Translations under genes and position numbers: made by a program | Assembly: GCF_057098645.1 (NCBI RefSeq) | Contig: NZ_CM169472.1 | Strand: one strand, 5' to 3' | DNA: 64,000 nucleotides | The notes under the pieces: model-generated | Seen by the model: only the letters and a program-made list of their open reading frames with translations | The model's database searches: none | Told to the model about the DNA's origin: nothing | Shown here: positions 39,897-45,959 of the stretch, piece after piece | Numbering within the stretch: the first letter of the stretch is position 1 | Layout of the letters: each line of letters opens with the position of its first letter

Positions 39897-40803
39897 TTAC
39901 CTGTTTTCCCACAATCTCAGCATCGCTTTGTGTTCGTCTGTCAGCACAATCTGCGGGCGTCTGGCTCGAATATAGCTAATCGCTTCATTAACGGTTTTAC
40001 AGTGTCCGTAACATAACAACCATGCCGCCACCACCAGCGCACTGCGCGATAATCCCAATGCACAATGGACCAGAACGCTGCCTTGCTCTTCGCGTAATGT
40101 TTCCAGCATCGCCACGGCCTGTCGGAGTTCCCCCTCTTCCGGAACCACCAGATCCAACATCGGTACACAGAAATAGAGTCGATCTTTTGTCTCTCGTCCT
40201 CGAGGGAATTCAAAGGTGACGTCCAGAACCGCATTCTGTGCCGGAATATGTCGTGGAAACGCCCCTAAATAAACACCAGCAGTCATTTTGCTCACCGGCT
40301 CCAGGCGACGACAAAACCAACGCATAGATAGCCACATCCCGATGCGCCAGGGCAATGTCAGCCAGTAAACGGCGGGCGGGAGTTTCCCCTGACTATCTTT
40401 CCCTGTTGTTATCGCGCCAAACCCACCGTACCCACGGCCAATAATGAGTAGCGATAATACTGGCCAACATAACCAGACTGACCACCATAACTGAACCATC
40501 ATCATTAGCTCCATCAACACAATGCACGCGCACGCGCCTACGACATATGGCAGTGCTATTTTGATTCGACGTTGATCAGGTTTCTGATAATTCCAACGAC
40601 GGTCGACGGGTACCATCCAGTCAATCAACATACCTACCGCCAGCCCTGTGATGACATCAATAAAATGATGCTGCCAGGTTGTCAGCGTCGAAATGGCGAT
40701 GAGTAAAAACCATCCGCCGCAGACTTTACGCCAACTCACAGCCAGATGCTGACGAAAGTGACGCCAAAGTAGCCAGCAGAGAATAATATGCAGCGAAGGA
40801 GAC
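39897..40803 (-). pseudogene. ynbD: ynbD 3' fragment (PAP2-like membrane phosphatase fused to dual-specificity phosphatase domain), separated from its 5' part by IS629
   Basis: Encodes PSLH and HHFID PAP2 motifs and the C-terminal HCALGLSRS (CX5R) phosphatase signature; its reading frame continues from the 42114..42526 fragment once the IS and one copy of the duplication are removed. Confidence 0.85.
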
Positions 40804-40845
40804 TGAACCGCCCCGGGTTTCCTGGAGAGTGTTTTATCTGTGAAC

Positions 40846-41736
40846 TCAGGCTGCCAGATCATCGTTTCCGATGGAAGCATAATAAGCTTTTTCTGCTTCT
40901 GCCGGAGGAGTATGGCCCAGCCTTTCCAGCAATCGTCGATTGTTATACCAGTCCACCCACGTGAGTGTGGCCAGTTCCACTTCTGCACGGTTTTTCCAGC
41001 TCTTACGGTGTATTACCTCCGCTTTGTAAAGACCATTGATGCTCTCCGCCATCGCGTTGTCATACGAGTCGCCTGTACTTCCTGTTGATGCCAGTAATCC
41101 GGCTTCCTTAAGCCGCTGTGTGTAGGCCAGCGATACATACTGAGAACCTTTATCACTGTGATGGACCGTGCCGGACGGTCGACGGGCCCATAACGCCTGC
41201 TCCAGTGCATCCAGCACGAATGTCGTCTCCATGGACGATGAGACCCGCCACCCCACAATGTATCCGGCAAACACATCAATGATGAACGCCACATAGACGA
41301 AGCCCTGCCATGTGCTGACGTAAGTAAAATCAGCCACCCACAGCTGGTCAGGTCGTTCTGCCACGAACTGACGGTTTACGCGGTCGCCTGCGGCAACGGC
41401 TTTCCGGCTGATGGTCGTACGGACCTTTTTACCCCGGAGAACACCGGCAAGTCCCATAACCGCCATGAGACGTGCCACAGTGCATCTGGCCACTCTGATA
41501 CCTTCCCGTAACAACTGACGCCAGACTTTACGCACACCGTATACCTTGTGATTTTCATCGTATACGCGCTGTATCTCTTTCTTCAGCCAGTCATCGCGCT
41601 GCGCACGGGCACTGCGTTTATCCGGATGATGTCGCTGTTGCTGACAGTGGTAATACGTTGACGGGGCAATATGCAGTTCGCTGCATAGCGGTCCGACCCC
41701 GTACTGCTCACGCAGCTTATCCAGCAGTGGCATCAT
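40846..41736 (-). CDS. IS629 transposase OrfB (DDE integrase domain)
   Basis: 296-aa ORF with rve-type DDE catalytic region; overlaps orfA. Confidence 0.9.
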
Positions 41737-42059
41737 TTTTTCCAGAGGCGGTCGAACTCCGCCTTCGCAAAATAAGCGGAAGCCTGGCGAAGGATATCGT
41801 TACTGCGGCGCAGTTCACGATTTTCACGCTCCAGCTCTTTCAGACGCTGACGTTCAGCGGTGGTGAGCCCTCCATCACCGCCCCCGGTATCCCGCTCATG
41901 CTGGCGAACCCAGACACGCAGAGTCTCCGGCGTACAGCCAATCTTTGGAGCAATGGAACAAATTGTCGCCCATTGTGAGTCATATTCGCCCTGACTTTCC
42001 AGAACCATACGGACTGCCCGTTGACGGACTTCAGGGGAAAAACGAGTATTTTTAGTCAT
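41733..42059 (-). CDS. IS629 transposase OrfA (HTH DNA-binding)
   Basis: 108 aa [19 protein letters not shown]…; A-run GAAAAAATG at the orfA/orfB overlap is a likely -1 frameshift site. Confidence 0.9.
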
Positions 42060-42113
42060 CCTGTTTACCTCTTTCTCAGGAAGTTTAGTCTCCAGGATTC
42101 CCGGGGCGGTTCA

Positions 42114-44273: not shown

Positions 44274-44288
44274 TTTCTCTATTTTCCT

Positions 44289-45185
44289 TCAGTAACAGCA
44301 GTAGCGAATAAAATAAAAAAATACCGGAGCGGTGAAAATTAATGAGTCAATCCTGTCAAGGAGTCCGCCATGTCCTGGTAATAGTTTTCCGCTATCTTTA
44401 ACACCCACATCTCGTTTGACGGCTGACATCACTACATCGCCGCAAAAACCACTAATACCAATTAACAAACCCGCTAATAATGCCTGTAATGTATTTAGCG
44501 GTGTCAGCAACGGTCCAATAATCAGTGACGCAATCATGGTGGTGATGACGCCCCCCACCAGACCTTCCAGCGTTTTTCCCGGGCTGACTTTGGGGACCAC
44601 TTTTCTTCTGCCGCAGGATTTCCCCCATAAATACTGTGCAATATCGTTTGACTCTGTTAACGCCAAAAGAAATAACACCAGTAACGCCCCGCCCTGGGTA
44701 TTTGTGGTTGGCAACATTAATAACCAGGCGGCATGACTCAAGGCAAAAACGGTCATTATCCAGCCCCAAAAAATGGCGCTCACGGTATGCAGAAAACCGG
44801 AGGGATCACCCACAAAAACTCGCCAGGTGGTTAATATCAGAAACCCAGCCAAAGGTATAAATAACAGAAACAGCTCAAAGCAATTAAAACCGATAAGCAA
44901 ATAGTTAAGAGGAATAACCCAATATAACCAACGCGGAAAATGTACGGATATAAGCGTACAATATTCTTTCAATGCCAGAAAACTTATCAGCGCAAAAAAC
45001 GTCAACGTCATCCAGCGTGGACCTGAAATCACCAGTGAAAAACAAATGACGATACCCCACCAGGTACGAATACGTAATGTAACTTCATCCCCTTTTCTCT
45101 CCGGTAACCGCCATACCCGAAAACGGTTTATCAGCGTTGCTAAAATTAACAACGCGAAAAGTGTTGCCAGAGATTTTTCCAGCAT
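44289..45185 (-). CDS. ynbB: YnbB, CdsA-like phosphatidate cytidylyltransferase paralogue
   Basis: 298-aa polytopic membrane ORF, CTP-transferase-1 family features. Confidence 0.8.
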   Translation of the reverse strand: MLEKSLATLFALLILATLINRFRVWRLPERKGDEVTLRIRTWWGIVICFSLVISGPRWMTLTFFALISFLALKEYCTLISVHFPRWLYWVIPLNYLLIGFNCFELFLLFIPLAGFLILTTWRVFVGDPSGFLHTVSAIFWGWIMTVFALSHAAWLLMLPTTNTQGGALLVLFLLALTESNDIAQYLWGKSCGRRKVVPKVSPGKTLEGLVGGVITTMIASLIIGPLLTPLNTLQALLAGLLIGISGFCGDVVMSAVKRDVGVKDSGKLLPGHGGLLDRIDSLIFTAPVFFYFIRYCCY

Positions 45186-45790
45186 TATCTTTCAGCACTC
45201 ATCAGGAGCACACTCCGACAACGATTAATCGCAGTCCAGATAAGCAGAATTGAAGCAATGCCCCATAAAAGATTATTCCATTGCATCCACTGTGGATAAA
45301 TGGCAACGGCCAGCCCCCACAACCCAAATATTAACGCACGATCGCTTTTGCCGAATGGACCGGCATAACTGCGAATACCGTTAATCGTCTGCGCGAGTAA
45401 ACCGCAAAACTCAGTCAATATGGTGCAAAATAACATGAGTATTACGAGTGATGCGTTACTTTCCGGTAAAAATAAAAACGGTAAATAGAGCGCAATATCG
45501 GAAATAACATCGCCAGTTTCATTCAAAATCGCCCCCAGACGTGTTTGCTGATTGCACTCACGCGCCAACATGCCATCCAGCGCATTGAGTGCCATACGGA
45601 TAAAAAGCACGATGGGCAATAGCAAAAAGAGGATGGGTTGTGCGACCAACATCAACAGCAATCCGGTAATAAGAGAAAGCGCCAGTGCAGCAAGAGTGAT
45701 GTGATTCGCTGTAACATGGTGCTTATAAAGCCAAAACATCGTCGGCCTTAACAGCGACTGAAAGAGCGGTTTTATCTGGTAGAGCGTCAT
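45185..45790 (-). CDS. ynbA: YnbA, CDP-alcohol phosphatidyltransferase family
   Basis: Motif DGMLAR…G…D…D present (LNALDGMLARECNQQTRLGAILNETGDVISD). Confidence 0.85.
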   Translation of the reverse strand: MTLYQIKPLFQSLLRPTMFWLYKHHVTANHITLAALALSLITGLLLMLVAQPILFLLLPIVLFIRMALNALDGMLARECNQQTRLGAILNETGDVISDIALYLPFLFLPESNASLVILMLFCTILTEFCGLLAQTINGIRSYAGPFGKSDRALIFGLWGLAVAIYPQWMQWNNLLWGIASILLIWTAINRCRSVLLMSAER

Positions 45791-45959
45791 TATCAATCCT
45801 TGATAATTCGGTTTGCGCTATGGTGCATCAATTCCCCTGACGGAGATATCGCAACACGACGCTTCATTAAAAATTCAGAATATATCAAGGTATTGGGGAC
45901 TCACTGTCAGGAATGATTATCCCAATAAATCAAGTGGTTAAAAATTATTACGCTGTTAT

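Follow-up and report, generated by a model that had tools for sequence, protein, structure and literature searches.

The Escherichia coli ynbABCD lipid-enzyme operon with its last gene split by an IS629-type element

The closest described relative of the locus considered here is the ynbABCD operon of Escherichia coli K-12 (b1408-b1411 region), which has the same four genes in the same order and the same neighbours, hrpA, azoR and ydbD. The ynbA promoter is switched on by BglJ-RcsB, without which the operon is poorly expressed (PMC3950696), and co-regulation of the ynb genes by BglJ-RcsB has been published (PMC3950696; bioRxiv 10.1101/2025.05.08.652849). Experimental phenotypes within the operon have been obtained only for ynbB (PMC6362211, PMC11413397). 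Its product, a CdsA paralogue, serves as a back-up for making the glycolipid MPIase and, along with CdsA, is induced by cold (PMC6362211, PMC11413397). The assignment of an activity to YnbB comes from this literature, which connects the protein with the synthesis of CDP-diacylglycerol as well as of MPIase: overproduced YnbB raises MPIase levels without being able to stand in for CdsA in bulk lipid synthesis, and growth of the ynbB knockout is normal (PMC6362211). In CdsA-dependent MPIase synthesis (GlcNAc-PP-diacylglycerol, 'compound I') a role has thus been reported for YnbB, whereas none has been reported for ynbA, ynbC or ynbD.

A CDP-alcohol phosphatidyltransferase family enzyme encoded with a phosphatase is also a feature of the PgsA/PgpA-C and PgsA1/PIP phosphatase pathways, to which the ynb genes add a CdsA paralogue of their own, a lipase fused to a methyltransferase and, in clusters other than that of E. 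coli, an acyltransferase of the PlsC type. The class I family signature is D1xxD2GxxAR...GxxxD3xxxD4, in which the four aspartates bind two catalytic metals, and R94 of Mycobacterium tuberculosis PgsA1 binds the phosphate of the acceptor at a position described as always K or R (PMC6506517).

The window, a stretch of 64,000 nucleotides of contig NZ_CM169472.1 (NCBI RefSeq assembly GCF_057098645.1), contains this already annotated operon with its last gene cut by a mobile element. The ynb DNA is about 97.6% identical to that of K-12 and, outside the insertion sequence, 100% identical to the alleles of O145:H28. As the initial annotation had it, the four genes are co-directional, all on the minus strand: ynbA (45185-45790; a 201-aa CDP-alcohol phosphatidyltransferase family membrane protein, with the mechanical ORF reaching a TTG at 45796), ynbB (44289-45185; a 298-aa CdsA-like phosphatidate cytidylyltransferase paralogue), ynbC (42516-44273; a 585-aa hydrolase and methyltransferase fusion) and the split ynbD (whole span 39897-42526), whose GTG start at 42526 is the one called by PGAP in the identical intact allele. 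The genes had been described as overlapping, which is correct for ynbA and ynbB (a 1-nt overlap of stop and start, TAATG at 45185) and for ynbC and ynbD (11 nt), but ynbB and ynbC are separated by a 15-nt gap. Upstream, the ynbA-ydbD intergenic region (45797-45959, minus strand) corresponds to the K-12 region that holds the BglJ-RcsB-activated ynbA promoter (PMC3950696); in consensus scans of the locus for promoters and terminators, matches were no more frequent than in shuffled sequence. The shared direction, the short overlaps and gap, synteny in 80 loci (vide infra) and the co-regulation in the literature identify a single operon, and the proposal that the four genes are linked in one pathway finds strong support, as to a functional unit, in translational coupling, synteny and published co-regulation. 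The locus is probably best read as a translationally coupled accessory membrane-lipid operon with a private CDP-diacylglycerol branch, from which ynbD has been lost by ordinary IS-driven pseudogenisation.

The disruption of ynbD that had been claimed from the sequence is real. Compared with the intact O145:H28 allele, and unlike K-12, ynbD has an insert of 1310 bases (40804-42113) between the two copies of a 3-bp duplication, GAC (42114-42116 on the ynbD 5' side and 40801-40803 on the 3' side), in an otherwise 100% identical sequence. The element lies on the minus strand, in the orientation of the ynb genes; its inverted repeats begin TGAACCGCCCCGGG, and 30 of the 40 terminal bases match. It encodes orfA (41733-42059, minus strand; 108 aa, HTH_Tnp_1) and orfB (40846-41736, minus strand; 296 aa, rve integrase core), with an A6 slippery run and an ALIL frameshift-stimulating pseudoknot (41662-41778, minus strand; Rfam RF01497, 120 bits). 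Inverted repeats, 3-bp duplication, an orfA/orfB pair with a -1 frameshift and a DDE (rve) transposase place it in the IS3 family, and its length, its two reading-frame lengths and its programmed frameshift are those of IS629/IS1203 insertions in EHEC, with only the target site being new. We take it to be IS629 on the basis of the transposase sequence and the PGAP labels of near-identical copies. The GAC duplication fits the 3-4 bp target duplications of IS629 in O157:H7 (PMC3271280).

The insertion falls in codon 138, one codon ahead of an invariant PSLH motif, and leaves ynbA, ynbB and ynbC, which lie upstream, untouched. The 5' fragment (42114-42526, minus strand) comprises codons 1-138, and its frame continues for 15 codons into the element, to a stop at 42065-42067. 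The 3' fragment (39897-40803, minus strand; codons 138-438) has lost its start codon, but retains PSLH, HHFID and the complete phosphatase domain (D354, C384x5R390). The phosphatase gene had been called missing; ynbD is indeed split, but the CX5R domain is still encoded and is only parted from the start and the first 138 codons. A shortened YnbD with an intact phosphatase domain, arising from a hybrid ORF or an internal restart and retaining activity or being deregulated, is highly improbable. The predicted hybrid ORF (39897-40988, minus strand; 363 codons) does run in frame from a GTG at 40988, inside the element, across the IS end into the 3' fragment, and the orientation of the element makes read-through transcripts from the ynb promoter plausible. 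However, a scan of the hybrid ORF found no promoter-like or ribosome-binding signal, and the fragment starts in the middle of the membrane domain, which makes its folding and insertion doubtful. The exact IS/ynbD junction is absent from 5426 complete E. coli genomes. A shared lineage marker or insertion hot spot was considered and rejected; two hits that seemed to span the whole junction consist of separate pieces lying about 380 bp from each other. The insertion is an ordinary, strain-private pseudogenisation in a real and known operon.

Co-occurrence across genomes had been proposed as a check on the linkage of the four genes, and the outcome favours it. Among 80 proteobacterial loci, drawn from at least 579 species hits with the closer 11-sequence YnbC set, ynbA, ynbC and ynbD are contiguous and colinear in about 76, and ynbB is present in 66. 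A PlsC-type acyltransferase is encoded in 67 of the 80 loci, and most also have a small membrane ORF; E. coli lacks both. As the fuller cluster is found in most other proteobacteria, the E. coli operon is a reduced version. Synteny is kept across Gamma- and Betaproteobacteria, and the cluster is widespread in Pseudomonas and the Betaproteobacteria. A short cluster, ynbA-ynbC-ynbD, is maintained without ynbB in Providencia, Proteus, Morganella and Xenorhabdus, which suggests that these three genes can function together when YnbB is absent. In Phytobacter and Rouxiella there are natural operons without ynbD.

YnbC is a two-domain protein (Pfam: Hydrolase_4, 225.7 bits; Methyltransf_20, PF12147, 505.9 bits). 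In Foldseek searches with the full-length protein (predicted model pLDDT 95), all neighbours are hydrolases; the methyltransferase domain was modelled separately. The N-terminal domain (residues ~1-285) resembles Rv0183 and human MGL (TM 0.90), and its family match, its fold and a Ser-Asp-His triad (S115, D230, H260) mark it as a monoacylglycerol-lipase-like alpha/beta hydrolase. D230 and H260 do not vary in the closer 11-sequence set, and S115 hardly does; in a wider alignment D230 and H260 are still nearly invariant, with S115 under 90%. The C-terminal domain (residues ~290-585) is a class I SAM methyltransferase by fold and family match (predicted model pLDDT 93), and its neighbours are SAM methyltransferases at TM 0.66 or lower. 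Among these neighbours, only generic small-molecule methyltransferases and an uncharacterised Bordetella protein were found when an informative one was sought, and therefore no substrate can be inferred; a literature search on PF12147 and Methyltransf_20 found nothing. The structure-based annotation suggested for YnbC thus yields a monoacylglycerol-lipase-like hydrolase, but no substrate class for the methyltransferase. The possibly methylated head group of the initial annotation finds neither support nor contradiction here. A distant YnbC homologue adjoins patatin, CdsA-like and PAP2_3 genes.

YnbA scores above the gathering cut-off of PF01066 (38.6 bits, cut-off 22), but its signature, N67xxD70GxxAR..GxxxN88xxxD92, i.e. 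NxxDGxxAR(x8)GxxxNxxxD, departs from the DxxDGxxAR..GxxxDxxxD of PgsA and PIP synthase in having Asn at D1 and D3. Both positions align to Asp in PIP synthase and CPT1. Asn occupies both in every one of the 78 tblastn hits and of the 69 full-length YnbA orthologues, counts that apply inside the ynb clade, the homologue search having listed close orthologues only. There is also no K or R after D4: the position of PgsA1 R94 is V or I in 69 of 69 orthologues, and YnbA has not kept the residues with which PIP synthase binds phosphate. Without two of the four signature aspartates, it is possible that YnbA does not carry out the classical reaction. Among solved structures its closest relative is the mycobacterial PIP synthase. 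In NCBIfam it comes nearest to archaetidylinositol-phosphate synthase (74 bits, equivalog cut-off 180) and PIP synthase (48 bits, cut-off 170), with PgsA at 31 bits (cut-off 109); all these scores are far under the cut-offs, so that it belongs to none of the three.

YnbD combines a membrane region and a cytoplasmic domain. The latter is a dual-specificity phosphatase by its DSPc match (97 bits), CX5R loop and general acid D354, features that do not separate a lipid from a protein substrate; several dual-specificity phosphatases are matched by the family profile, one of them being the mitochondrial phosphatidylglycerophosphate phosphatase PTPMT1 (E = 4e-12). The PAP2 matches of the membrane region are sub-threshold (PAP2_3 19-25 bits, cut-off 27; PAP2 17-19 bits, cut-off 27.2), although the family profile can be aligned with motif C3 in human PLPP1 (E = 0.003). 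Seven residues, H142, H182, H183, D186, D354, C384 and R390, are invariant across 32 YnbD orthologues. Against the PAP2 motifs (C1 KX6RP, C2 PSGH, C3 SRX5HX3D), YnbD shares with PAP2 phosphatases (PLPP1, PgpB) and transferases (sphingomyelin synthase, Aur1) a C2-like PSLH and a C3-like HHxxD (H182/H183..D186), both invariant in the orthologues, but differs in a degenerate C1, in a Val replacing the Arg of the C3 'SR' and in the fusion to a phosphatase domain. A degenerate C1 and a missing C3 Arg are typical of the PAP2 transferase branch rather than of the phosphatases. With the sub-threshold PAP2 match and the non-canonical YnbA signature as caveats, the domains and gene content originally described are borne out by the Pfam matches.

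The initial annotation further held that, as a result of the insertion, the pathway would stop at a phosphorylated intermediate, a claim drawn purely by analogy with PgsA or PIP synthase and a partner phosphatase. On that model YnbA would make a phosphatidyl-X-phosphate, YnbD would be its dedicated phosphatase, and the intermediate would accumulate in this strain. The nearest named families and best solved relative of YnbA, the PTPMT1 match of YnbD and the nearly constant co-inheritance of ynbA and ynbD are consistent with it, but the family scores of YnbA lie far under the 170-180 bits that define the relevant equivalogs, and both the V/I at the R94 position and the Asn at D1 and D3 argue against it. 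So do the natural operons without ynbD, the roughly 15% of E. coli genomes without the operon, the CX5R domain that is still encoded and the poor expression in the absence of BglJ-RcsB (PMC3950696), and the model is accordingly considered quite unlikely; the block itself is unsupported. It is a further point against accumulation of such an intermediate that YnbD would not be alone. PgpA, PgpB and PgpC are three further phosphatidylglycerophosphate phosphatases of E. coli.

As the initial annotation stated, no lipid product has ever been assigned to ynbABCD, and because of this every reaction step past family membership has to be put conditionally. In the accessory-lipid reading preferred here, YnbB would make CDP-diacylglycerol that is kept out of the bulk pool, and YnbA, with its remodelled metal site, would hand the phosphatidyl group to some acceptor. 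The product may then be processed by YnbD, through its membrane PAP2-type His/His/Asp domain and its cytoplasmic Cys-based phosphatase domain, and the lipid or head group may be deacylated, methylated or both by YnbC. The insertion splits the putative PAP2-type active site and removes the native start of the phosphatase domain, probably with loss of the last pathway steps and little or no effect on fitness. A more specific version, for which the odds are distinctly poor, is that the Asn residues at D1 and D3 and the lost basic residue of YnbA are the sign of a transferase that depends on CDP-diacylglycerol and uses a non-classical acceptor, in an undescribed lipid pathway. One conceivable acceptor is a phosphate monoester, which would yield a head group joined to diacylglycerol by pyrophosphate, as in GlcNAc-PP-DAG; CDP-DAG may be channelled from YnbB to YnbA, and YnbD may use its PAP2-type domain as a transferase or pyrophosphatase instead of as a plain phosphatase. 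If so, the conserved five- to six-gene cluster would encode a bacterial route to a membrane lipid that has not been described so far, and might provide the enzymology that is missing for MPIase-like lipids. The ynbABCD operon marks a modest but genuine gap in what is known of E. coli lipid biochemistry, a conserved unit of recognisable enzyme families, for which the larger ancestral cluster with its acyltransferase, the strictly conserved YnbA signature and the two-domain YnbD sharpen the tests that can be made.

YnbB matches PF01148 over its full length (238.8 bits, profile positions 2-263 of 264), but is not a CdsA equivalog (113.8 bits, cut-off 385). It is possible, if unlikely, that only YnbB matters in E. 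coli, as a cold-induced second CDP-diacylglycerol synthase and MPIase back-up, and that ynbA, ynbC and ynbD are left over from the larger ancestral cluster, so that loss of ynbD would be without any consequence. The restriction of experimental phenotypes to ynbB (PMC6362211, PMC11413397), the loss of the acyltransferase and small membrane ORF from E. coli and the frequency of ynbC truncations and of IS hits would agree with this. Against it, the catalytic residues of the E. coli proteins are intact, the short cluster without ynbB is maintained in the four genera named above, and the dN/dS values of ynbA, ynbC and ynbD (0.10-0.17, O145:H28 against K-12) are no higher than that of ynbB (0.24). 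MPIase is essential and carries the common-antigen trisaccharide of Enterobacterales. In contrast, the ynb cluster extends far beyond Enterobacterales and is missing in many E. coli; for this reason an MPIase-specific role for the whole operon was rejected as the main reading. The YnbB-MPIase work, the larger cluster and the departure of the YnbA signature are all omitted from the initial annotation, whose account of ynb is to that extent incomplete.

In the accessory-lipid reading, the E. coli operon is weakly expressed unless induced by BglJ-RcsB or cold, and is dispensable. Roughly 15% of complete E. coli genomes do without it altogether: of the 5426, 4620 contain ynbD DNA and 4605 contain ynbA-C, contiguous in 4267 of these. 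The operon being dispensable, the split of ynbD is routine gene loss; the purifying selection evident over all four genes (dN/dS 0.10-0.24) suggests that the operon matters where it is kept, and the insertion may therefore carry a cost in some niche. The insertion itself matters little, and at most provides an O145:H28-like strain in which ynbD is naturally null. It is one among many independent losses: IS hits in ynb genes are common, other genomes have their own insertion sequences, deletions or frameshifts in ynbB, ynbC or ynbD, and truncations of ynbC are frequent.

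The ynbABCD operon, a real feature whose gene set was known and annotated before, lies on the minus strand and spans 39897-45796, flanked by azoR (39238-39843, plus strand) and ydbD (45960-48272, minus strand). It comprises ynbA (45185-45790, from the ATG start used by PGAP; the mechanical ORF begins at a TTG six bases further upstream), ynbB (44289-45185), ynbC (42516-44273) and ynbD (39897-42526), all on the minus strand. The four genes are co-directional, as initially annotated, but overlap at only two junctions. The ynbA stop and ynbB start share 1 nt (TAATG), and ynbC and ynbD overlap by 11 nt given a GTG start at 42526, which is also the start in RefSeq's identical intact allele; ynbB and ynbC are separated by a 15-nt spacer containing AGGAAA. 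The window aligns colinearly with E. coli O145:H28 RM12581, and positions 39001-49192 are 100% identical to that genome except for 1310 inserted bases and a 3-bp duplication.

The bases absent from RM12581 (40804-42113, minus strand, oriented as the operon) are a complete IS3-family element of the IS629/IS1203 type. Its termini are inverted repeats starting TGAACCGCCCCGGG, and it is flanked by direct GAC repeats (40801-40803 and 42114-42116); duplications of 3-4 bp have been reported for IS629 (PMC3271280). The element encodes orfA (108 aa, HTH_Tnp_1) and orfB (296 aa, rve), with an A6 run at their overlap and an internal ALIL frameshift pseudoknot (120 bits), and near-identical copies in RefSeq are labelled "IS3 family transposase, programmed frameshift". 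The 1310-bp element and its GAC repeats, set against the otherwise identical RM12581 allele, bear out the earlier claim that ynbD is IS-disrupted, and routine IS629-type transposition would account for inactivation of the operon's last gene in this strain.

The insertion falls after nt 413 of the 1317-nt ynbD, in codon 138. The fragment upstream of it codes for 138 residues of YnbD followed by 15 from the IS, and the downstream fragment (301 codons) has as its first motif exactly the invariant P139-S140-L141-H142. The description of the operon as missing its phosphatase is therefore only partly apt: ynbD is split and the downstream fragment lacks its own start, but that fragment still encodes the entire C-terminal phosphatase domain. 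A 363-codon hybrid ORF (39897-40988, minus strand) opens at a GTG within the IS and continues in the ynbD frame through that gene's 3' portion, and its putative product could in principle be a truncated protein with an intact CX5R domain. Upstream of the insertion, ynbA, ynbB and ynbC are intact, including ynbB, the sole gene with a known role.

This insertion allele is strain-private yet ordinary. Its junction was found in 0 of 5426 complete RefSeq E. coli genomes; two seemingly full-coverage matches were rejected, as each consisted of two pieces ~380 bp apart. Independent ynb lesions are present in PO06021 (IS629-like element in ynbB), Evo1 and AF57 (IS629-like elements at the 3' and 5' ends of ynbD, respectively), UTME-3 (an IS with deletion of the ynbC/ynbD junction), AR_0013 (a different IS in ynbD), THO-010 (IS2 in ynbB) and 2014C-4423 (a frameshifted, shortened ynbC). 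By megablast, ynbD DNA matched 4620 of the 5426 genomes (4602 contiguously) and ynbA-C DNA matched 4605 (4267 contiguously over at least 80%), with ~800 having no match to ynbD or to ynbA-C; at this sensitivity, ~15% of E. coli are thus without the operon. Truncated ynbA-C, with matches to <80% of the query, adds ~6% (~340 genomes), and in several of these ynbC is annotated as methyltransferase-only. Values of dN/dS between O145:H28 and K-12, drawn from 23-45 substitutions per gene, are 0.10 (ynbA), 0.24 (ynbB), 0.14 (ynbC) and 0.17 (ynbD), and the operon, where kept, is under purifying selection.

The chief interest of the operon lies in a strictly conserved, non-canonical signature in YnbA and in the cluster's own supply of PA and CDP-DAG in most species, rather than in the insertion. 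YnbA matches PF01066; its closest named families (archaetidylinositol-phosphate synthase, PIP synthase and PgsA) are all far under their cut-offs, and its best solved relative is a mycobacterial PIP synthase (E = 5e-8). The signature (residues 67-92) reads N-A-L-D-G-M-L-A-R-(x8)-G-A-I-L-N-E-T-G-D; two aspartates of the CDP-alcohol phosphotransferase motif, the first (D1) and the third (D3), are Asn here. Both Asn residues are present in 78 of 78 orthologue matches and in all 69 full-length orthologues (42-76% identity); the Glu after the second is invariant, and after D4 the 69 full-length orthologues have V/I where PIP synthases have K/R. In M. tuberculosis PgsA1, Mg-1 is bound by D1, D2 and D3 and Mg-2 by D3 and D4, D4 is the presumed base, and R94 contributes to inositol phosphate binding (PMC6506517). 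YnbA, in contrast, has Asn at D1 and D3, where PgsA1 has Asp, and V/I in place of R94. Given these residue roles, YnbA is a conserved divergent subfamily with a remodelled metal and acceptor site, and the gene is not in decay.

Scanning a single genome of each species with a YnbC profile yielded at least 579 confirmed matches, of which 80 loci were kept, from Enterobacterales, Pseudomonas, many Betaproteobacteria and one Bradyrhizobium. The ynb genes are functionally linked, as had been proposed: ynbA, ynbC and ynbD lie side by side in colinear order in ~76 of the 80 loci. ynbB is found in 66 (contig ends account for 6 of the 14 absences), and a PlsC-type acyltransferase (PF01553, ~210 aa) in 67, co-occurring with ynbB save in loci L016 and L018. 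Many loci also have a small membrane ORF after ynbD. The gene order is ynbA-ynbB-acyltransferase-ynbC-ynbD-ORF in Citrobacter and relatives, ynbA-ynbC-ynbD-ORF-acyltransferase-ynbB in Pseudomonas and Betaproteobacteria, and ynbA-ynbC-ynbD only in Providencia, Proteus, Morganella and Xenorhabdus. Most species' clusters encode their own PA and CDP-DAG supply, which together with the YnbA signature poses a defined biochemical question. Both the acyltransferase and the small ORF are absent from the E. coli cluster.

The acyltransferase lies, for example, at L008:7367-8008 and L086:11484-12104, and its Citrobacter position corresponds to the 15-nt spacer (44274-44288) in the window. In many loci of Pseudomonas, Betaproteobacteria and Citrobacter, ynbD is followed by a small hydrophobic ORF (133-154 aa, without a Pfam match), as at L086:11010-11474 and, in a possibly homologous version, at L008:11031-11432; the window has no counterpart. 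Citrobacter sp. Cu233 has two ynb-type loci, L009 and L018; one is a full cluster, and the second, ~66% identical, lacks ynbB, matches ynbA and ynbD only in part and contains a fragment of the acyltransferase gene. More distant YnbC-type hydrolase-methyltransferase fusions (33-41% identity) occur within other clusters of lipid-like type, at L092:6970-14629 and L088:3031-8779. One distant homologue adjoins a patatin, an SDR, a CdsA-like gene and a 592-aa PAP2_3 protein, and another adjoins a ketosynthase, a MaoC dehydratase and a ketoreductase.

Two clusters lack ynbD. In Phytobacter massiliensis (L016, 6443-10396), ynbABC is followed directly by azoR, without an acyltransferase, and in Rouxiella aceris (L020, 5802-9752), ynbA-ynbB-acyltransferase-ynbC precedes unrelated genes. 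These natural operons count against the initial proposal that the ynbD insertion stalls the pathway at a phosphorylated intermediate, as do the absence or independent lesion of the operon in other E. coli and the V/I of YnbA at the position after D4 that is basic in PIP synthases. Such a block is possible, but no direct support for it was found. ynbABCD is best read as an accessory, self-contained CDP-diacylglycerol branch, reduced and dispensable in E. coli; that the cluster encodes a truly novel class of lipid chemistry derived from CDP-DAG seems quite improbable. A literature search found no product assignment for ynbABCD, in agreement with the initial annotation.

YnbB is a full-length CTP_transf_1 protein (239 bits) that fails as a CdsA equivalog. 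Overproduction of this CdsA paralogue increases the glycolipid MPIase; deleting it has an effect only when CdsA is limited, and it does not substitute for CdsA in bulk phospholipid synthesis (PMC6362211). Cold induces both YnbB and CdsA, and the enzymes of later MPIase steps are unknown (PMC11413397). BglJ-RcsB activates the ynbA promoter (PMC3950696), and a transcriptome of plasma stress shows co-variation of ynbA, ynbC and ynbD (bioRxiv 10.1101/2025.05.08.652849).

YnbC has both domains of the proposed hydrolase-SAM methyltransferase, and its fold is predicted with high confidence (pLDDT 95). The N-terminal domain superposes with monoacylglycerol lipases (TM 0.90) and has an HGxxEHSGR-type motif with S115, D230 and H260, and the C-terminal domain is a class I methyltransferase (PF12147, 506 bits). 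The structures nearest to the latter are those of a Bordetella protein that is uncharacterised (TM 0.66) and of various natural-product methyltransferases, and they offer no specific tie to a lipid head group. Polyphosphate built up in a ynbC transposon mutant of one strain background, an effect that Keio strains did not show (PMC2435150).

The assignment of YnbD as a PAP2 plus CX5R protein is firm for the second part: the DSPc domain is clear (97 bits), D354, C384 and R390 are invariant, and the first matches of the family profile are archaeal PTPs, while PTPMT1 is matched at E = 4e-12. The N-terminal membrane domain scores only 19-25 bits against PAP2_3, although PSLH and H182-H183-x-x-D186 are invariant and the profile aligns with the C3 motif of human PLPP1 (E = 0.003). 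Of the PAP2-type motifs, C1 is degenerate and C3 lacks its arginine, a pattern known from the transferase branch (sphingomyelin synthase, Aur1).

Beyond the operon, window positions 49192-49366 (175 bp) are the exact reverse complement of the RM12581 sequence. This stretch lies in the pdxI-paaY intergenic region, immediately upstream of the pdxI start. It has no flanking inverted repeats, its orientation is found in 0 of 5426 complete E. coli genomes, and its possible origins are a private inversion, an assembly error or an edit.
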